Virus record (IMG/VR): IMGVR_UViG_2548877009_000013
Location: 1-7,210 of that record
Source: a virus
Lineage: Duplodnaviria > Heunggongvirae > Uroviricota > Caudoviricetes
Direction: 5' to 3' (one strand)
DNA length: 7,210 bases
Part shown: positions 1-7,210 of the stretch, in pieces
Layout of the letters: each line of letters opens with the position of its first letter
How positions within the stretch are numbered: position 1 is the stretch's first letter
Position numbers and translations under genes: made by a program
Notes under the pieces: model-generated
What the model saw: the letters and a program-made list of their open reading frames with translations, nothing else
Database searches by the model: none
What the model was told of the DNA's origin: nothing

Positions 1-222
1 ATGCGTGATGATCGTTTTAATTCCCTGAAACAGGAATTTTCCGGCGTTCCTGATGATGCGGCTGATGCGCTTTCGTCAATATCTGAAATTATGCGGGTGG
101 CTTTTTTCTTTCTTTGCACTGATGAGCACAGAGATACAGGGCTAAATATTCTTGATATTGCCGCTAACTATGCTGATTTCGTGACAGAGGTTATTTTAAG
201 AAAAGCGACGGACGGGGATTAA
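1..222 (+). CDS. Hypothetical protein, possibly 5'-truncated by the window edge
   Basis: ORF open from base 1 with stop at 220-222; its stop lies one base before the next start (224) in the same operon; no recognisable motif. Confidence 0.4.
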   Translation: MRDDRFNSLKQEFSGVPDDAADALSSISEIMRVAFFFLCTDEHRDTGLNILDIAANYADFVTEVILRKATDGD

Positions 223-223
223 T

Positions 224-457
224 ATGCGTGATATTTACCACGAAACAACAGATCGCGTATTTCTTGCACTTTCTCACAGTGAAAATATGATGGAAATATT
301 GCGCATATGGCTTGAAACACTTGGCGACAATGAACGCGACAAACAAAAATCAAGAATTGCCACGGCATTAATAACGCTTCTTGAGCCTGTAATAAATGAG
401 TTGCAGGAAATAGAGACATTACACGACCAGTATAAAGCGCCCCACACCGGAGAATAA
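224..457 (+). CDS. Hypothetical small protein (77 aa)
   Basis: ATG at 224 preceded by a G-rich stretch (GGGG ~208-213); tightly packed between flanking same-strand genes; no recognisable motif. Confidence 0.5.
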   Translation: MRDIYHETTDRVFLALSHSENMMEILRIWLETLGDNERDKQKSRIATALITLLEPVINELQEIETLHDQYKAPHTGE

Positions 458-462
458 AAATA

Positions 463-762
463 ATGAAGCTTAAATATTCTGGCTTAACTGCCAGTGGCAA
501 CACTCACCCTAAATTTACGCGCGGTGATATTTACCGCGACCAGTACGGCGGTACGGTAATGATTAAGGGCGTGGCGGGACGGTGCGTAACTTACCGCCGT
601 GAAGGTTACGAATATGATTGCGTGATGCCTGTTTATCAGTTCCGGCGTGATTTTTCTCTGGTACAGACCGCGCCGCATAACGTGCCCACCAGCAACGCCA
701 GAGCACGGGCAAACATCCAGAAGCTGAAAACAATGATTAACGGATTCAGGGGTAAAAAATGA
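463..762 (+). CDS. Hypothetical small protein (99 aa), translationally coupled to the downstream replication gene
   Basis: GGAGAA Shine-Dalgarno about 9 nt upstream of ATG 463; its stop overlaps the start of the next gene (ATGA at 759-762). Confidence 0.55.
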   Translation: MKLKYSGLTASGNTHPKFTRGDIYRDQYGGTVMIKGVAGRCVTYRREGYEYDCVMPVYQFRRDFSLVQTAPHNVPTSNARARANIQKLKTMINGFRGKK

Positions 763-2903
763 AACTGGCACCGAACGTAAAACAGCAGTCACGCGGCATA
801 AAACACAAAGAAACAGAAGTCATTATTTTTGCGGGTAGTGATGCCTGGTCACACGCAAAACAATGGCAGGAACATGACGCGCGTATGGCCGGAGATAATG
901 AGCCTCCTGTGTGGCTTGGGGAGCAGCAGTTATCCGAACTGGATAAGCTGCAAATTGTGCCGGAAGGCAGAAAATCAGTACGCATATTCAGGGCCGGACA
1001 TCTTGAGCCAGTAATGATCAAGGCGATTGGTCAGAAACTGGCGGCGGCAGGCGTACAGGATGCAAATTTTTACCCTGAGGGAATGCACGTTCAGAAGGTG
1101 GAGAACTGGCGCGAATATCTGGCCCGTGAGCGGCAGAATCTTTCTGATGGTCTGGTTATTGAGCTTCCGGTAAAGAAAAAAGATACCGGAAGTCATAGCG
1201 ATGACGAATTAAAGCCACGCGTTGAAAGTCGCGCCGATGGTGTTTTCTGGGTAACGCCCAAAGTGGATAAGCAGTCAGGCGAAATTATCCGGCCTGAGAC
1301 GTGGTTATGTTCTCCGCTTGAACTACTGGGAACGGGGACGATCGGTAAAGAGCATTACCGCGTGATGCGCTGGAAAAAAACCGCAAACCATGAAGTCATC
1401 ACAATGGCGATCCCGTGTGGTGGTATCGGCGACCGTGACGGCTGGCGGTTACTTAAAGATCACGGGCTGAACGTGACAACCAACGGCAAATACAGGGCAA
1501 TCCTGGCGGACTGGATGCAGTTAAGCGGAAGCCATGAGGAATGGCAGTTAAGCACAACAACGGGCTGGCATTTTGGCGCGTACATCATGCCGGACGGTTC
1601 GATCATTGGTGATTCTGAAAAACCGATCCTGTTTACCGGAAAAAGCGCCGCGATTAACGGTTATTCCGTGGCGGGTACGGCGGAGGGCTGGCGCGAGAGT
1701 GTGGCGCGACTGGCTGGCGGTAATGCCTCAATGATGCTGGGTGTGGCAACGTCACTGGCAGCGCCTTTAATTGGCCTTGTGGGTGCTGACGGCTTCGGGG
1801 TGCATCTTTTCGAACAGTCATCGGCAGGTAAGACCACCACGCAGAACATCGCATCAAGTTTATGGGGAGAGCCGGACGCGCAGCGGCTGACCTGGTACGG
1901 CACGGCGTTAGGTATTGCCAATGAGGCCGAGGCCCATAATGACGGGCTTTTACCACTGGATGAGATAGGCCAGGCCGGAAATGCGCGGGAAGTGTCAACG
2001 TCTGCTTATACGCTGTTTAACGGTTCAGGGAAATTACAGGGGGCGAAGGATGGCGGCAACAGGGAGATCAAACACTGGCGAACGGTGGCAATCAGCACCG
2101 GAGAAATGGACGTTGAGACGTTCCTCAAAACGGAGGGGATAAAGGTTAAGGCAGGACAGCTTGTCCGTCTGCTTAACGTGCCGATGGAAAAAGCCACGCA
2201 GTTTCACGAATACAGCACCGGAAAGGCGCACGCAGACGCGTTAAAAGATGCCTGGACAGAAAATCACGGGGCGGCGGGGCGTGAGTGGGTTAAATGGCTG
2301 GCAGACCACCAGCAGGAGACAAAGGACACGGTAAGGGCATGCCGTGAACGGTGGCGCAACCTGATACCGGAGAGCTACGGCGAGCAGGTCCACCGCGTGG
2401 GTGAGCGTTTCGCCATACTGGAGGCCGCACTTGTGCTTTCCGGTCATGTGACTGGCTGGGATGAGCAGGAATGCCGTGATGCCATTCAGCATAATTTTAA
2501 TGCCTGGGTGAAAGAGTTCGGTACGGGCAACAGGGAACACAGGCAGATTATTGAACAGGCTGAGGCGTTTCTTGCAGCCTATGGCCTGAGCAGGTTCGCC
2601 CCTGTCAATTATGACCCTGCCAGCCTGCCGATTTCAGAACTGTACGGCTACAGGGAAAGCGACGGGCGTTATGACGAGCCTGTTTTGTTTTACGTGCTGC
2701 CGGAGCCGTTTAGCTCACATGTGGCGAAGGGATTTAACAAGGATGCCGTAGCAAAGACCCTTCATGAAGCCGGAATGCTGAGAAAACCAGCCAGCGGGCG
2801 GGGATGGCAAATCAGGACACCACGACTAAAACACCTGAAAGGGGCGCGGCTAAGAGTGTATGGCCTTTTGCTGACGCAGGACCACGATGCTGAAAATGAT
2901 TAA
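759..2903 (+). CDS. Replication protein, primase/helicase-like P-loop NTPase (714 aa)
   Basis: Long ORF with a Walker A-like motif (SSAGKTTT) and a Walker B-like hydrophobic stretch ending in DE (LLPLDEIG) about 70 aa downstream; immediately followed by an iteron array, as in satellite primase-ori arrangements such as P4 alpha/ori. Exact family not determinable without a profile search. Confidence 0.7.
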   Translation: MKLAPNVKQQSRGIKHKETEVIIFAGSDAWSHAKQWQEHDARMAGDNEPPVWLGEQQLSELDKLQIVPEGRKSVRIFRAGHLEPVMIKAIGQKLAAAGVQDANFYPEGMHVQKVENWREYLARERQNLSDGLVIELPVKKKDTGSHSDDELKPRVESRADGVFWVTPKVDKQSGEIIRPETWLCSPLELLGTGTIGKEHYRVMRWKKTANHEVITMAIPCGGIGDRDGWRLLKDHGLNVTTNGKYRAILADWMQLSGSHEEWQLSTTTGWHFGAYIMPDGSIIGDSEKPILFTGKSAAINGYSVAGTAEGWRESVARLAGGNASMMLGVATSLAAPLIGLVGADGFGVHLFEQSSAGKTTTQNIASSLWGEPDAQRLTWYGTALGIANEAEAHNDGLLPLDEIGQAGNAREVSTSAYTLFNGSGKLQGAKDGGNREIKHWRTVAISTGEMDVETFLKTEGIKVKAGQLVRLLNVPMEKATQFHEYSTGKAHADALKDAWTENHGAAGREWVKWLADHQQETKDTVRACRERWRNLIPESYGEQVHRVGERFAILEAALVLSGHVTGWDEQECRDAIQHNFNAWVKEFGTGNREHRQIIEQAEAFLAAYGLSRFAPVNYDPASLPISELYGYRESDGRYDEPVLFYVLPEPFSSHVAKGFNKDAVAKTLHEAGMLRKPASGRGWQIRTPRLKHLKGARLRVYGLLLTQDHDAEND

Positions 2904-2928
2904 TCTCGCGTGTAGGAGGTAAAAATAT

Positions 2929-3218
2929 GTTGTCCCAGTCGTCCCAGTAAGCAACAAGCAATCGTAACACATTGAATTACATAAATTTCACTTACAAAAA
3001 GTGGGACAACAGCGGGACAACATTCAGGCATTTTGGGACAACATAGCGGCATTTTGGGACGACACGACACGTATTTTTTACCGTGCTGGAGGGTGGGACA
3101 ACACAAAAACCCTCATGTCGTCCCAAAATCGCCTTATGTCGTCCCACTTTGTGGAGTATGTTTTTAATAAAATCAACAGGTTAACATTAAGTGGGACAAC
3201 CGGGACAACTGGGACGAC
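2929..3218. repeat. Iteron array, putative origin of replication
   Basis: Twelve copies of the 9-bp motif YGGGACRAC. Eight are on the + strand (3002-3010, 3013-3021, 3034-3042, 3055-3063, 3094-3102 and three contiguous copies at 3192-3218) and four are inverted (2929-2937, 2938-2946, 3117-3125, 3138-3146). They are interspersed with AT-rich stretches (3147-3190, 3219-3257) and sit directly downstream of the replication gene. Confidence 0.7.
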
Positions 3219-3257
3219 GTGTTTTGTATATATATACGAAAAATCGAGATCTGAACT

Positions 3258-3506
3258 ATGAAGTTAAACCGCAAACAACCACACTACCGCGCCATTGACC
3301 TTACAGAGCACTGGCTGAGAGTGGCGATAAAAATCATCGACCGCAACACGGTGGAAGGATACGCGAAAGCACATCCCGAACTGATAAGCGCATTCATGAC
3401 CACAGCGGCGGCAAACTTTGCCACGCTGACAGAACGGGAGATTGCCGAAGCGGAACAGGTAACAACCATCAACGTAAAAACCGGAGAGTCAGGCGATGAT
3501 ACATGA
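3258..3506 (+). CDS. Hypothetical small protein (82 aa)
   Basis: ORF starting just after the iteron region; its 3' end overlaps the next ORF by 11 nt (coupled pair); no recognisable motif. Confidence 0.5.
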   Translation: MKLNRKQPHYRAIDLTEHWLRVAIKIIDRNTVEGYAKAHPELISAFMTTAAANFATLTEREIAEAEQVTTINVKTGESGDDT

Positions 3507-3744
3507 CCGCATAGCGGAGGAACTCGAGGCGAAAGGATTTTACCGGAGGGCGGCGGCGCGATGGGGTGAAGTCATGCAGCTGGTGGAGACAGACAAGGAA
3601 CGGCATCAGGTTACGATGCGACGGCTGGAATGTTCCAGGAAGGCACAGAGGCCACCGGAGCCGCCAACGGAGAACTATGCAGACCTGAGAAATGCAGTAA
3701 ATCGCACTTACGCAGACATGGGGCTGAGCAAATTAGCAGAGTAG
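3496..3744 (+). CDS. PerC-like small transcriptional regulator (82 aa), tentative
   Basis: N-terminal segment IAEELEAKGFYRRAAARWGEVM resembles, from memory, the conserved signature of PerC-family activators; GGAGAG Shine-Dalgarno 7 nt upstream of ATG 3496; followed by terminators. Confidence 0.45.
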   Translation: MIHDRIAEELEAKGFYRRAAARWGEVMQLVETDKERHQVTMRRLECSRKAQRPPEPPTENYADLRNAVNRTYADMGLSKLAE

Positions 3745-3766
3745 GAATACCAGAACCACACCACAC

Positions 3767-3790
3767 AGCCGGAGCAATCCGGCTTTTTTG
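3767..3790 (+). terminator. Rho-independent terminator
   Basis: Stem AGCCGGA (3767-3773), loop GCAA, TCCGGCT (3778-3784) followed by a run of six T, about 25 nt after the stop at 3744. Confidence 0.7.
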
Positions 3791-3795
3791 CGCCC

Positions 3796-3837
3796 AAAAA
3801 AAGCCCGATAAGGTCAGAGGTGGCTTATCGGGCTTTT
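3796..3837. terminator. Second hairpin terminator, possibly bidirectional
   Basis: A-tract (3796-3802), stem GCCCGATAAG (3803-3812), 11-nt loop, CTTATCGGGC (3824-3833), then TTTT (3834-3837). Confidence 0.5.
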
Positions 3838-3914
3838 GCATATGAGGCTTTTTGGTGCACTGACACACATGATCGGGATAATCATTTCATAATTTGCAAT
3901 ACAACTCAATATCA

Positions 3915-3942
3915 TTGCACAAAATGCAATCATGATTATAAT
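3915..3942 (+). promoter_or_regulatory. Sigma70-type promoter candidate for the capsid operon
   Basis: -35 TTGCAC (3915-3920), 16-bp spacer, perfect -10 TATAAT (3937-3942); lies about 55 nt upstream of the first gene of the capsid operon. Confidence 0.5.
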
Positions 3943-3945
3943 CAT
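3932..3945. promoter_or_regulatory. Perfect 14-bp palindrome overlapping the -10 hexamer (candidate operator)
   Basis: ATGATTATAATCAT is its own reverse complement and covers the TATAAT. The nearby dyads TGCAAT-N13-ATTGCA (3894-3918) and TTGCA-N5-TGCAA (3915-3929) suggest a regulator-binding region. Confidence 0.4.
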
Positions 3946-3998
3946 AACTGGATGAACATACAGTTATGATTTTTTAAGTCAAAGAGGAATTTCTTACT

Positions 3999-4205
3999 AT
4001 GGCTGAAGAGAAAAAAGGCGGTGTTTCGGTGTACATAAGCCCCGACATCGTGAAGGCGCTCAAGGAACGCCACCAGCAGAACGTAAAAGCAGGCATTGCG
4101 GCAGGACTTGATCCGCTGGCGATGGTTGAGCCGTCAACAGGCTGGCAGGTACGCGCCTATTTACGCGCGGCGCTGGGTATGAATCAGGTTCACGGGGGTG
4201 AATAA
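3999..4205 (+). CDS. Hypothetical small protein (68 aa), first gene of the capsid operon
   Basis: AGAGGA upstream of ATG 3999; stop overlaps the capsid gene start (TAATG at 4203-4207). The N-terminus (VSVYISPDIVKALKERH) has a strand-helix pattern compatible with a ribbon-helix-helix fold, which is speculative. Confidence 0.5.
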   Translation: MAEEKKGGVSVYISPDIVKALKERHQQNVKAGIAAGLDPLAMVEPSTGWQVRAYLRAALGMNQVHGGE

Positions 4206-5260
4206 TGACAGTAAAAGCAATGGCACTTAACACTAACCAGCTTTTTGCGTACCTGAATCGCGGGGATATTGCGGAATTTAAATTCAGTCCGCTGTTTACC
4301 ACGCTGTTTTTCCCGAACGTGGCGACATTCAGCACCCAAAACATCATGCTGGATACCCTGGACATTGAAGAAGTCACCATGTCGGCGTTTTGTTCGCCTA
4401 TGGTTGGCAGCCAGGTACAGCGCGATAAAGGGTACGAAACCAGCACAATTAAACCTGGCTACATGAAGCCAAAGCACGAAATCGATCCAACGAAAACCAT
4501 CATGCGCATGGCTGGAGAAGATCCAGCACAGCTTAACGACCCTACCTACCGCCGTATGCGCCTGATTACTGGCAACATGCGCCGCCAGATAAACGCCATT
4601 AAAGCGCGCGTGGAATGGCTGGCGGTGAATGCGATAACGACCGGAAAAAACATCATTGAGGGCGAAGGCATAGAACGCTATGAAATAGACTGGAAGATCC
4701 CAAGTAAAAATATCGCCAGACAGGGACCGGGTAAAAAGTGGTCAGAGGCAGATAAGGAAACACACGATCCAATCTATGACATCGAGCTTTATGCTGATCA
4801 GGCTGGTTGCCCCGCAAACGTCATGATTATGGGCGTTGAGGTATGGCGCACGTTACGCAGCTTTAAAAAATTCCGTGAGCTGTACGATCTTTCCCGTGGT
4901 TCAGAATCCGCCGCAGAACTGGCCTGTAAAAACCTGGGCGAAGTGGTGAGCTTTAAAGGCTATCTGGGCGATATTGCCCTTATCGTCTATTCCGGCAAAT
5001 ACGCCGACAGCGACGGCACAGAAAAATATTTCCTTGAGCCTGATTTACTGGTCCTGGGCAACACCAACAACAAAGGGCTGGTGGCCTATGGTGCGATTAT
5101 GGATCAGGAAGCGGTAAGAACAGGCGCAACGCAAAACATGTACTACCCGAAAAACTGGATTGAGGACGGCGATCCGGCGATTGAGTACGTGCAGACGCAC
5201 AGCGCACCGCAGCCGGTTCCGGCAGATATTCGCAAATTTGTTACCGTCAAAATTGCTTAA
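4205..5260 (+). CDS. Major capsid protein, phage lambda gpE-like (351 aa)
   Basis: Several blocks match lambda gpE as recalled: EFKFSPLF vs KFKFDPLF, PGYMKPKHE vs PGYVKPKHE, EDPAQLNDPTYRRMR vs EDPQNLADPAYRRRR, LGDIALIVYSGKY vs YGDVAIVVYSGQY, YPKNW and GDPA and SAP near the C-terminus. G-rich RBS upstream of ATG 4205. Confidence 0.9.
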   Translation: MTVKAMALNTNQLFAYLNRGDIAEFKFSPLFTTLFFPNVATFSTQNIMLDTLDIEEVTMSAFCSPMVGSQVQRDKGYETSTIKPGYMKPKHEIDPTKTIMRMAGEDPAQLNDPTYRRMRLITGNMRRQINAIKARVEWLAVNAITTGKNIIEGEGIERYEIDWKIPSKNIARQGPGKKWSEADKETHDPIYDIELYADQAGCPANVMIMGVEVWRTLRSFKKFRELYDLSRGSESAAELACKNLGEVVSFKGYLGDIALIVYSGKYADSDGTEKYFLEPDLLVLGNTNNKGLVAYGAIMDQEAVRTGATQNMYYPKNWIEDGDPAIEYVQTHSAPQPVPADIRKFVTVKIA

Positions 5261-5271
5261 CGGGGGATTCT

Positions 5272-5607
5272 ATGGACACTCCATACATTGAGTTATTTGC
5301 AGGTAGTCAGCAGGTATCCACGACGCTGGTACATTTTGCCGCTGATGCTGGCGTTATTCAGGAATTTACCCCGCTGATGCTGGCGGGCAATGGCGAGTTT
5401 AAGCCGTGGGATGGTCAGGAATCTGGCAAGGCTGTTTATCTGACCTCGTACCCCGTGGACACGTCAAAGCAGAAATCAGCACAGTGTTACAAGACGGGGA
5501 TATTTAATATCGCCGCCGTAAACTGGCCTGAGAGCGCCGACACTGACGCGAAAAAATGCGCCGCCTTTGCGGGTTCTGGCGTATCCGTTCAGCCGCTGGC
5601 GCGATAA
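5272..5607 (+). CDS. Head decoration protein, phage lambda gpD-like (111 aa)
   Basis: Size and motifs match lambda gpD as recalled: TPLML followed by WDG, YKTGIF vs YKSGTF, WPE with acidic residues, AAFAGSGVS vs TAFAGTAIS. GGGGGA RBS upstream; adjacent to the capsid gene. Confidence 0.85.
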   Translation: MDTPYIELFAGSQQVSTTLVHFAADAGVIQEFTPLMLAGNGEFKPWDGQESGKAVYLTSYPVDTSKQKSAQCYKTGIFNIAAVNWPESADTDAKKCAAFAGSGVSVQPLAR

Positions 5608-5619
5608 GCAGGGGAAACG

Positions 5620-6033
5620 ATGGCAACGAATGAAAGCATCATGGCGCTACCGCTGGCGAGTAAATTTAAAGCAGAAGCGCGGGCAATGGCTGACAGAGGT
5701 TTATCAACCTACGAGGCCGTATATCAACTCAACAAACTGGAAGAGCAGGACAAGCCGCGCGCTGATGCGATTATGGCGCTTCATGAACATAACGACTATC
5801 AGCCGCTGTTACGTGCAATGGCAAACGTGCCATGTATTAGCGTCGATAATGCTCGTGAAATCCTGAACATGACCATAGACCAGGAGCGCCCAAAGGTTGC
5901 ACCAGAGCTTACCGCAGCCTTTGAAAACTTTATGGACATGCACAGCCCGCAAGCCGTATCAGCTGGCATGGCATACGATGGCAGAAACCAGGGCGATGAC
6001 GGCGACATCGATCGCATACTGAAAACCATCTGA
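5620..6033 (+). CDS. Hypothetical protein (137 aa), last gene of the capsid operon
   Basis: AGGGGAAA RBS before ATG 5620; same strand and operon as the capsid and decoration genes; followed by a terminator. Function unknown; a head or packaging accessory role is suggested by position only. Confidence 0.6.
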   Translation: MATNESIMALPLASKFKAEARAMADRGLSTYEAVYQLNKLEEQDKPRADAIMALHEHNDYQPLLRAMANVPCISVDNAREILNMTIDQERPKVAPELTAAFENFMDMHSPQAVSAGMAYDGRNQGDDGDIDRILKTI

Positions 6034-6039
6034 GACAAG

Positions 6040-6061
6040 GCCGGAGAAATCCGGCTTTTTT
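6040..6061 (+). terminator. Rho-independent terminator
   Basis: GCCGGA (6040-6045), loop GAAA, TCCGGC (6050-6055), then TTTTTT (6056-6061), 7 nt after the stop at 6033. Nearly identical to the terminator at 3767-3790. Confidence 0.7.
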
Positions 6062-6062
6062 A

Positions 6063-6127
6063 CGGGTCCTTCCTGGAATTATGGCCCGTTACGGGGCGGC
6101 GACCTCGCGCGTTTTCGCTATTTATGA
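6063..6127 (+). other. Lambda-type cohesive end site (cos), left copy in + orientation
   Basis: Contains GTTACG then GGGCGGCGACCT (6094-6105) then CGCGCGTTTTCGCTATTTATGA. This matches the 12-nt cohesive end and flanks of the lambda cosN region as recalled (lambda: GTTACG, GGGCGGCGACCT, CGCGGGTTTTCGCTATTTATGA). It sits directly upstream of a Nu1-like gene, as in lambda. Confidence 0.75.
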
Positions 6128-6194
6128 CGTTTTTCCGTGAAGGTGACACCACCACCACTTGATTAACATTTAACCAGTCAATTGAGGTAATATT

Positions 6195-6635
6195 ATGATT
6201 GATAAGGATTGTTTTGTAAGTCAGCAGGAAATAGCTCAACATTTCAAGGTAAACAGAACCACTATTCGCGCATGGACCAAACAGGGGATGCCCTATCTTA
6301 ATGCGGATCGCGGAAAGTCTGGAGGTTATCACATCGGGCATACATTGCTTTGGTCTTCAGGTAAAAGCCATCTTGAGACCATCGGATATCACGTAGAAAC
6401 CAGTGCGCTGGAAAAAATTATGGTTGCCAGGCTGCTTTTATCTGAGCGTGACGAGTACTCCAGTGAAGAAACAGAACATCGCTTTGATGAAGGTTTGCAG
6501 ATTTACGGCTATTCACCGGAAGATGTGAGCAAGGCACGAAATAAAATGGCTGGCTTTCTGGCTGGGTGGCGTCATGCCGTAAGCGTTCGCCGTACCAGCA
6601 TGGAGCAATCAGTCGTTACAGAACAGCAAAGTTAA
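6195..6635 (+). CDS. Terminase small subunit-like protein with a Nu1-type winged-HTH N-terminus (146 aa)
   Basis: N-terminus VSQQEIAQHFKVNRTTIRAWTKQGMPYL parallels lambda Nu1 VNKKQLADIFGASIRTIQNWQEQGMPVL as recalled; GAGG RBS 8 nt upstream of ATG 6195; located immediately after cos. The C-terminal two thirds show no recognisable similarity to Nu1. Confidence 0.75.
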   Translation: MIDKDCFVSQQEIAQHFKVNRTTIRAWTKQGMPYLNADRGKSGGYHIGHTLLWSSGKSHLETIGYHVETSALEKIMVARLLLSERDEYSSEETEHRFDEGLQIYGYSPEDVSKARNKMAGFLAGWRHAVSVRRTSMEQSVVTEQQS

Positions 6636-6665
6636 AAATCACTTTCTGTTACGCCATCAAATACG

Positions 6666-6815
6666 CAATACAACAACCACGTATTTTTTTAAAACTATTT
6701 GATTCAATTAGCATTTTTTTATTTTCAGCATCAAAAAAACACTATCAGGTTGTTGTATTGCTCTCTATTTTTACTTAGTTATCAAATAGATATGACAAAC
6801 AATTAAACAACAACC
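6666..6815. repeat. AT-rich segment with three copies of ACAACAACC (two direct, one inverted), candidate cosB-like binding sites
   Basis: ACAACAACC at 6670-6678 and 6807-6815; inverted GGTTGTTGT at 6748-6756. The outer and middle copies form a 13-bp perfect inverted repeat (CAATACAACAACC at 6666-6678 vs GGTTGTTGTATTG at 6748-6760). No ORF of note in this segment. Confidence 0.4.
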
Positions 6816-6830
6816 TACCTCTAAAAAAGC

Positions 6831-6895
6831 TCATAAATAGCGAAAAACCGCGAGGTCGCCGCCCCGTAACGGGCCATAATTCCAGGAAGGACCCG
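6831..6895 (-). other. Second lambda-type cos site, inverted copy
   Basis: Reverse complement of 6831-6895 equals 6063-6127 except for 2 mismatches (63 of 65 identical); contains the complement of GGGCGGCGACCT at 6853-6864. Confidence 0.7.
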
Positions 6896-6928
6896 ACGAC
6901 ACCAGACTATCAGAACGATGGGGGCACA

Positions 6929-7210
6929 ATGACAGAAGCCGAACTACTGCGATTAATCCGTCGCGTTGCCGGAATCAGCCAGCAGGCTGACGAACAGGCC
7001 ACGCAGCCGGACAGCGTGACCGCCGAAAATTATGCGCGTGTGGTTGCTGAGGTGATGCGCCGTGACGGTATTGAGCTTAACGGCGTGGATATGCGCGACA
7101 TACGGATCCGCGTTCTGGAAATGCTGGCCTACAATCGCCGCGTTGAACTGTATCGGGAGAAAGAAAAAATTACGTACCACTGGAAGAAGCCGGAGCGGTT
7201 ACGGCGATAA
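6929..7210 (+). CDS. Hypothetical protein (93 aa)
   Basis: ATG 6929 preceded by GGGGG; the stop codon falls exactly at the window end; no recognisable motif. Confidence 0.45.
   Translation: MTEAELLRLIRRVAGISQQADEQATQPDSVTAENYARVVAEVMRRDGIELNGVDMRDIRIRVLEMLAYNRRVELYREKEKITYHWKKPERLRR

Follow-up and report, generated by a model that had tools for sequence, protein, structure and literature searches.

EcCICFT073, carried by Escherichia coli CFT073, is the model Gram-negative phage-inducible chromosomal island (PICI; PMC6092414). Its helper-induced excision, replication and high-frequency transfer have been demonstrated with a CFT073 prophage, lambda and phi80, and two cos sites are reported for it (PMC6092414). 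In the same work (2018), its gene c1499 was described as coding for a putative capsid protein, and c1500 was assigned to head decoration. Of 29 reference Gram-negative PICIs, 21 have a capsid gene; capsid genes are the most frequent late genes in these islands and are dispensable for transfer (PMC10111431). A 2019 review mentions the capsid homologue together with packaging of normal size. The DNA analysed here (the window) comprises 7,210 nucleotides, positions 1 to 7,210 of the virus record IMGVR_UViG_2548877009_000013. Positions 3999–6033 of it are almost certainly the capsid module of an EcCICFT073-type PICI, a cos-packaged satellite of lambdoid phages. The element is a mosaic variant of EcCICFT073 and not a previously undescribed satellite. 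The configuration of its capsid and decoration genes is likewise already known, as it was published for EcCICFT073, whose two proteins are 96–97% identical. The addition made in this report is modest: c1501 is most probably a truncated Nu3 scaffold, and population and lineage evidence points to a functional module.

Capsid-forming PICIs (cf-PICIs, e.g. EcCIEDL933) are the precedent for satellites that make their own capsids. Like the element in the window, which is presumed from its relatives to be of the int-alpA-rep type as well, they are satellites with head genes of their own, and the remainder is stolen from a helper. They encode capsid, protease, portal, connectors, HNH and the small and large terminase subunits (TerS and TerL) and form capsids of island size. 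The window element, in contrast, has just coat, cement and a reduced scaffold and uses the helper terminase by means of Rpp (redirecting phage packaging protein) and cos. The cf-PICI set of portal, maturation protease, connectors and TerS, TerL and HNH is found neither in the window nor in related islands. Satellites of the P4 type encode Sid, Psu and Delta; no such family is present among the window open reading frames (ORFs) scanned with Pfam and PHROGs.

According to the ORF listing, four ORFs on the plus strand form a compact operon between the primase gene with its iteron origin and the packaging module with cos and Rpp (lengths in amino acids, aa):

3999–4205, plus strand: 68-aa ORF in translational coupling with the gene that follows (phrog_3255, unknown function, E 8.4e-37)

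4205–5260, plus strand: major capsid protein of the lambda gpE family, 351 aa, homologue of c1499 (Pfam PF03864 Phage_cap_E, E 1.1e-49)

5272–5607, plus strand: head decoration protein of the lambda gpD family, 111 aa, homologue of c1500 (Pfam PF02924 HDPD, E 2.8e-17)

5620–6033, plus strand: probable N-terminally truncated Nu3-type scaffolding protein, 137 aa, homologue of c1501 (phrog_1999, full length, E 5.4e-64)

The 351-aa protein reaches 169.7 bits against PF03864 (cut-off 22.9) and covers profile positions 14–328 of 329. In PHROGs it is assigned to 'major head protein' (E 5e-107). It shares 43% identity with lambda gpE over 328 residues with two gaps of one residue each, and 45% with E of the natural helper in CFT073. 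A lambda-type capsid protein of known structure is also matched (PDB 7VI9, E 1.4e-81). The entry with the title 'putative capsid protein of prophage' (PDB 3BQW) is matched with E 5.4e-233. As the capsid protein is 96.6% identical to c1499, this crystal structure very probably shows c1499 itself; it was used earlier as a molecular-replacement model. The 111-aa protein scores 63.4 bits against PF02924 (cut-off 29.1) and belongs to 'head decoration' in PHROGs (E 7e-27). Its identity is 37% to lambda gpD over 76 residues and 43% to D of the CFT073 helper. These matches to the gpE and gpD families are far beyond chance. In contrast to lambda (C/Nu3-D-E), E precedes D. Thus ORF listing, Pfam, PHROGs and direct comparison all agree with the original prediction, made from the letters of the window, of lambda-type gpE and gpD genes placed in this order in an operon of four genes. 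A predicted 463-aa protein (P0100) has the PF03864 and PF02924 domains together and looks like an E-D fusion or read-through in the clade with 55% identical capsid proteins. This domain pair is consistent with the order E then D.

The original prediction also stated that no scaffold was in view, which is wrong. The 137-aa ORF (c1501, listed with 137 aa in the supplementary table of PMC6092414) is most probably an N-terminally truncated Nu3-type scaffolding protein without the protease domain. The decisive result is that the Nu3 proteins of phage 21 and lambda both match phrog_1999. Residues 64–200 of phage 21 Nu3 span the whole profile (E 1.8e-69) and residues 117–200 of lambda Nu3 match it with E 2.7e-26. 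A second PHROG match of the 137-aa ORF is to the C-terminal extremity of the family phrog_53 ('head maturation protease'). The ORF shares 37% identity with the final 85 residues of phage 21 Nu3 and as much with the C-terminus of the protease/scaffold of the icd prophage of CFT073. In a tblastn search of 50,697 phage genomes its sole match is the extreme end of a phage-21-like C/Nu3 gene (E 1e-5), which sits directly upstream of D and E. No pairwise similarity was detected between the tail of the ORF and lambda Nu3.

In the alignment to phage 21 Nu3, the 137-aa ORF corresponds to the last two of three helical repeats ('IMAL...LA..P.MTV..AR.IL') and the C-terminal tail ('FE.FM..HSP.AV...'). The N-terminal part of Nu3, the first repeat and the protease domain are missing. 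The head genes of lambda and phage 21 belong to the same three families (PF03864, PF02924 and the Nu3 scaffold region). In the satellite they are arranged as E-D-Nu3' as opposed to C/Nu3-D-E, and the scaffold is a free-standing protein of 137 aa instead of ~200 aa. Lambda Nu3 is the scaffold, and its interaction partners are B, C, E and Nu3 itself (PMC3224144). The icd prophage of CFT073 (locus L006, 33150–36125) contains a head module of the phage 21 type, with E 100% and D 98% identical to phage 21 and a protease/scaffold of 501 aa. It is taken to be the natural helper of the island, since PMC10111431 names the lambdoid prophage at icd as helper. The scaffold tail of the satellite therefore resembles the type of Nu3 that is carried by this helper.

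Natural variants of 93 aa (P0027, P0029 and P0031) lack residues 21–64, exactly one repeat unit between two RAMA(D/N) motifs. This looks like a repeat-mediated deletion. Some homologues of c1501 (P0001, P0004, P0007 and others; L016, 2161–2574) bear the NCBI name 'phage head-tail connector protein', which is not supported by Pfam, NCBIfam, PHROG or the alignment. The published marker 'c1501::tetA' was considered as a disruption of the scaffold-like gene, in which case the published negative results would have lost weight. The last bases of the primer are those of the c1501 stop codon (...ATCTGA), which places the marker directly behind an intact c1501, and the idea was rejected.

The 68-aa ORF is translationally coupled to the capsid gene, with its stop codon overlapping the start codon of the latter (TAATG). 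There is no match to the 68-aa ORF in the 50,697 phage records. An exhaustive profile search of 1.84 billion proteins finds just 14 representative clusters. All of the matches are short proteins, except a weak match to a repetitive protein of 1,264 aa (E 8e-5), and no larger parent protein was found for the family in this search. Neither the 68-aa nor the 137-aa protein has a match in a PDB sequence search, Pfam or NCBIfam. The AlphaFold2 model of the 68-aa protein has moderate confidence (predicted local distance difference test, pLDDT, 74.5) and a strand-helix-helix topology. Foldseek gives no match with E below 0.6 among PDB entries and viral models. A ribbon-helix-helix regulator was considered for this protein and is unsupported, given the strand-helix-helix model and the absence of a fold match.

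The following signals flank the operon:

3767–3837, plus strand: two consecutive terminator-like hairpins upstream of the operon and after the PerC gene (terminator-like site at 3767–3784; 14-nt perfect inverted repeat 3799–3812/3824–3837 with a T run)

3881–3971, plus strand: promoter/operator-like region of the capsid operon (found by repeat search; putative promoter)

6039–6061, plus strand: intrinsic terminator that closes the capsid operon (GCCGGA-GAAA-TCCGGC followed by TTTTTT; read from the sequence and not listed by the terminator scan)

Direct repeats of the form ATCATTxCAxAAxxTGCAAT (ATTTGCAA-like motif) occupy positions 3881–3900 and 3911–3930. A candidate -35 element (TTGCAC, 3915–3920) is separated by a 16-nt spacer from a perfect -10 element (TATAAT, 3937–3942). 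A 15-nt palindrome with arms at 3940–3954 and 3957–3971 follows. The region 3881–3971 is probably a regulated promoter, which the consensus promoter scan did not list. Its core is kept in the Salmonella island and in islands L008 and L009, whose capsid proteins are just 64–68% identical. The hairpins at 3767–3837 are likewise kept in related islands, and the hairpin at 6039–6061 is also part of the homology arm of the published c1501::tetA primer. The capsid operon is thus an insulated unit with a conserved promoter-like region of its own and terminators on both sides. Comparison of the sequence upstream of the operon with the natural helper, with lambda and with phage 21 gave no useful similarity and no evidence of late control shared with the helper.

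Among 5426 complete E. coli genomes, 594 (~11%) contain the 2.4-kb region of the operon (at least 80% of the length at 90% identity or more). Ratios of nonsynonymous to synonymous substitution rates (dN/dS; Nei-Gojobori, eight to nine E. coli islands) are 0.13 for the capsid gene, 0.11 for the decoration gene, 0.19–0.27 for the 68-aa ORF and ~0.30 for the scaffold-like ORF. All four genes are under purifying selection, and the module is maintained and not decaying. The capsid gene precedes the decoration gene in 11 of 11 islands from five genera, and the decoration gene always follows directly. In strain A33 (L015, 743–1800) the capsid gene is annotated as frameshifted, as are the neighbouring genes for the single-stranded DNA-binding protein (SSB) and TerS. 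Because these neighbours are also affected, assembly errors or a dying island are suggested for A33.

A decaying remnant of the head module of a lambdoid prophage would account for the lack of a laboratory phenotype, and the frameshifted capsid gene of A33 would suit it. This explanation is extremely unlikely and largely refuted by the low dN/dS values (0.11–0.30) in all four genes, an operon intact in hundreds of genomes, a gene pair kept across five genera, the conserved promoter region and the additional frameshifts in the SSB and TerS genes of A33.

Homologues of the capsid protein are found in Salmonella (68% identity), E. coli (64%) and, at 52–55%, E. coli, Kluyvera, Superficieibacter and Cedecea. 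All are in PICI-type contexts, and wherever the upstream flank of these loci is visible it is an int-alpA-DUF4222-primase island. Among species-representative genomes, a scan with the capsid protein found nothing and an alignment-based scan just three loci. The capsid proteins of the satellites are at least 52% identical to each other and just 41–45% identical to those of lambda, phage 21 and the natural helper. For comparison, the coat proteins of lambda and phage 21 are 62% identical. The decoration proteins show the same lineage pattern, with 29–40% identity to the cement proteins of lambda and phage 21. No phage among the 50,697 records has a protein more than 46% identical to the capsid protein. 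Because the satellite proteins are closer to each other than to those of helpers and no phage exceeds 46%, the capsid-decoration pair is an old lineage specific to satellites and not a recent capture from a helper. Such a pattern would be expected of coat, cement and scaffold proteins that work together and co-evolve.

Some of these relatives are embedded in helper prophages. Precedents for PICIs that interrupt helper gene E are published (PMC10111431). In the islands of the 11capE type (L011 and L020), a gpE-type capsid gene is followed by a decoration gene as in the window. They differ in that the capsid protein is 52–55% identical, an AlpA-like 114-aa gene is present and the Nu3-like gene and 68-aa ORF are absent. 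Furthermore, islands of the CFT073 type occupy chromosomal sites, whereas those of the 11capE type lie inside a helper gene. Both L011 (2511–2786 and 13309–14073) and L020 (~2600–3300 and 13403–14200) split the helper capsid gene E. Island L009 (1534–4438) is embedded in helper gene A, after a truncated gene for the large terminase subunit of the phage 21 type. The portal, protease and terminase genes near L009, L011 and L020 belong to the helper prophage that is interrupted by the island. Inside the related islands themselves, no portal, protease, TerL or tail gene is present.

The same holds for the window, in which Pfam and PHROG scans of the ORFs detect no portal, protease, TerL or tail gene. 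With tblastn, the A, B, C, W, FI and FII proteins of lambda and phage 21 have no match in the window or within related islands. Lysis, tail, portal and terminase-motor genes are thus absent, as in EcCICFT073 (Pfam, PHROG, tblastn). The nearest relatives with full context are the islands of CFT073 (L001), CEA601S (L002) and O157:H7 (L012); more distant ones are those of Salmonella, Kluyvera, Superficieibacter and Cedecea. The order in CFT073 is a tyrosine integrase beside roxA, an alpA-type helix-turn-helix (HTH) gene, an icd-like gene, DUF4222, primase, SSB and PerC. The four-gene module, a 144-aa gene and a last small ORF come next, and phoQ follows. This layout is repeated in CEA601S and O157:H7. 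In all three close relatives, whose left end is visible, int and alpA lie 6–8 kb upstream. Islands with both ends visible run int-alpA-...-DUF4222-primase-ori-capsid module-cos/Rpp or TerS, and host genes follow after ~11 kb.

The ends of the element are not visible in the window alone, which would be compatible with a small but complete lambdoid prophage whose remaining genes lie outside. For the relatives this is refuted: host or helper genes begin 1–3 kb past the module wherever the downstream flank is visible, and the integrase is ~7.5 kb upstream. The likelihood of a complete prophage is practically nil. The prediction of a satellite-like element without portal, protease or large terminase in view is therefore confirmed by Pfam, PHROG and tblastn and by the related islands, which extend over ~11 kb from int to host genes without other morphogenesis genes. 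A complete set of head and tail genes in the flanking sequence, or a capsid pseudogene in related elements, would have spoken against it. Neither was encountered in the relatives, which lack such a set and have an intact capsid gene under purifying selection.

The window is 94.8% identical to positions 1381483–1388654 of CFT073, and other E. coli chromosomes are also ~95% identical. Coverage of the window stays below 80% in every complete E. coli genome of the collection, which is why the element is regarded as a mosaic variant. Protein identities to CFT073 are 98.5% (68-aa ORF), 96.6% (capsid), 96.4% (decoration), 92% (137-aa ORF) and 93% (Rpp). EcCICFT073 and the window agree in gene order, two cos sites, PerC, DUF4222 and iterons, with module and Rpp proteins 92–98.5% identical. 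They differ in the replication region, where EcCICFT073 has a 584-aa primase and an SSB gene and the window a 714-aa DUF927 primase and no SSB gene. The features upstream of the operon are:

759–2903, plus strand: satellite primase/helicase of the DUF927 type, 714 aa (Pfam DUF927, E 1.1e-48; phrog_1139 DNA primase, E 1.6e-177)

3001–3201, plus strand: replication-origin iterons, six GTGGGACAACA-like 11-mers and inverted TGTCGTCCCA copies (repeat search, 82–100% identity)

3496–3744, plus strand: gene for a regulator of the PerC family, the nearest one before the capsid operon (Pfam PerC, E 5.8e-36)

The primase of the window is 88% identical to that of CEA601S, and the replication module is mosaic with respect to CFT073. 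As in EcCICFT073, the replication initiator (the DUF927 primase) is followed by the iteron origin. The origin of Gram-negative PICIs sits immediately 3' of the replication gene (PMC6092414). An 82-aa ORF (3258–3506) overlaps the start of the PerC gene at 3496. In the islands of CFT073, CEA601S and O157:H7, an SSB gene is inserted between an ORF of 82–85 aa and PerC; tblastn did not find one in the window. Rfam detects no RNA family in the window. In the Salmonella island (L007, 8214–9194) a second integrase gene is located between primase and capsid module, and a gene for a hok-type toxin lies past TerS.

The packaging module is located downstream of the operon:

6094–6105, plus strand: cosN (cos1), an exact match to the cohesive-end sequence of lambda, GGGCGGCGACCT, in a flank that is lambda cos-like

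6195–6635, plus strand: Rpp, 146 aa (PDB 6HLK/6HN7, RppC, E 7.2e-32)

6853–6864, minus strand: second, inverted cosN (cos2), an exact match to GGGCGGCGACCT

The two exact cosN sequences flank rpp, and none is expected in the window by chance. Rpp is 93% identical to the product of the CFT073 gene at L001, 14177–14611, which is rppA (c1503; PMC6739421). Its resemblance to lambda Nu1 is confined to the N-terminal HTH. Rpp binds the TerS of the helper and redirects it to the cos site of the island (PMC6739421). Cos sites with Rpp or TerS are typical of PICIs of the EcCICFT073 type, and the window has both cos sites and Rpp. A replication protein with iterons and a cos site had been predicted, and the DUF927 primase, six iterons and two exact cosN sequences correspond to this. 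The small gene at this place, described as TerS-like, is in fact rpp (PDB 6HLK, E 7e-32).

Apart from the 68-aa protein, the operon products are thus coat, cement and internal scaffold, and all components in contact with DNA or tail are missing (portal, protease, terminase, head-completion proteins and tail). In the lambda head, coat, scaffold and cement are the three proteins that bind mainly to one another; Nu3 has portal and protease as further partners. Since the three shell genes are kept under purifying selection and diverge together, the building of a shell would be their most economical use. The explanation tentatively preferred here, at somewhat less than an even chance, is that coat, mini-scaffold and cement build a satellite shell on the helper portal and are redundant with the helper set in laboratory assays. 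A lambdoid helper would induce the island, and the operon would yield coat, mini-scaffold and cement. The shell would assemble on the helper portal and be matured by the helper protease. Rpp would redirect the helper terminase to the island cos, so that the shell is filled with island concatemers. Helper tails would then be joined to the filled heads, and the head-completion proteins would also come from the helper. Every step after protein production, including assembly, the partners and the benefit, is what we infer. In nature the benefit may be independence from the shell genes of the helper, namely when the helper prophage is defective, when an embedded PICI splits its E gene or when its coat is limiting or mismatched.

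Several published results and some of the comparisons weigh against this explanation, and the existing knock-outs likewise do not favour the proposal of the original prediction that the element would supply its own shell. Deletion of c1499 or c1500 leaves transfer by the resident helper unchanged (3.8e3 and 8.7e3 versus 8e3 transductants/ml), and an island with c1499::cat is transferred by the resident helper (1e5), by phi80 (1e6) and, also well, by lambda (all PMC6092414). Neither deletion relieves interference with lambda or restores its plaques, and with lambda as helper all packaged DNA is phage-sized (PMC6092414). Among the cloned genes past the island origin, just rppA blocks lambda (PMC6739421). 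The small genes are not universal: the 68-aa ORF and the Nu3-like gene are both present in the EcCICFT073 group and in L008 and L009, the Nu3-like gene is absent from the Salmonella island L007, and the clade of L010, L011 and L018–L020 (52–55%) lacks the 68-aa ORF and has an AlpA-like 114-aa gene behind the decoration gene. The AlphaFold2 monomer of the 137-aa protein is all-helical and of low confidence (pLDDT 52.7), which is too uncertain for a fold-search query. Finally, it is presumed that the satellite coat is present in particles and that a coat with 45% identity would use helper portal and protease. The silent deletions may be explained by the proposed redundancy, because the helper also makes E, D and Nu3. 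The phage-sized DNA would follow if the satellite shells are of full size (T=7). The literature found contains no paper that gives the module a function or names c1501 a scaffold; as its coverage is incomplete, this is weak evidence.

A possible but doubtful variant is that the satellite is a 'half capsid-forming' PICI. It would stand midway between the classical PICIs, for which whole capsids are stolen, and the cf-PICIs, for which the theft is limited to tails. As adaptors, the truncated Nu3 and the 68-aa protein would then fit the 45%-diverged coat to the portal and protease of the helper.

Size or shape redirection is a different use of the same proteins. SaPIbov5, a cos satellite, has the coat homologue Ccm, and CpmB of SaPI1 serves as an alternative scaffold inside the shell and binds to the coat of the helper. 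By analogy, the coat homologue and the truncated scaffold of the window would direct the formation of small shells with room for the ~11-kb island but not for the helper genome. The window repeats the setting of Ccm, a coat homologue carried by a cos satellite, and the 137-aa protein, with the C-terminal tail and two repeats instead of three, fits the logic of a competing scaffold. Small capsids are produced by PmCI172, which is likewise a Gram-negative PICI and has a capsid homologue. Moreover, the scaffold tail matches the phage 21 type and not lambda, the helper from which the published DNA sizes were obtained. The likeness to Ccm and CpmB is, however, one of logic without sequence relationship. 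In those systems the capsids are small and the shell consists mostly of helper coat, whereas EcCICFT073 packages phage-sized DNA and has a coat homologue with its own cement. Induced CFT073, whose helper is phage-21-like, also shows no band of island monomers (PMC6092414). Interference was not relieved by deletion of c1499 or c1500, and a full-length coat with matching cement exceeds the needs of a size-redirection factor. Redirection is therefore unlikely.

The same deletions bear on a role in interference or defence. Diverged coat, cement and scaffold might poison the capsid assembly of lambdoid phages through dead-end mixed assemblies or by titration of portal, protease and scaffold. PICIs typically disturb helper morphogenesis, the scaffold tail mimics that of the phage-21-type helper and the module is insulated and separately regulated. 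Lambda plaques, however, did not recover upon deletion of c1499 or c1500; removal of rppA, the only one of the cloned genes past the island origin to inhibit lambda, restored plating almost fully (PMC6739421). Strong purifying selection along the whole coat and cement fits building better than poison. Interference by the module is accordingly quite unlikely.

A role outside the virion, such as a decoy or trigger of capsid-sensing immunity or a regulatory function of the small ORFs, is very unlikely. It would agree with the absence of a phenotype of c1499 in transfer and interference assays and with a 68-aa protein without recognisable relatives or fold. There is no positive evidence for it, and conservation of coat, cement and scaffold as a trio with a fixed order points to assembly.

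Among the phage late genes carried by Gram-negative PICIs, the capsid-decoration pair is the most frequent. With c1501 as a probable cut-down Nu3, a stray capsid homologue becomes a coherent set of coat, scaffold and cement that is directly testable. Should the set indeed build shells, it would bridge satellites with stolen capsids and satellites with capsids of their own, and it would be relevant to the engineering of PICIs into delivery particles.

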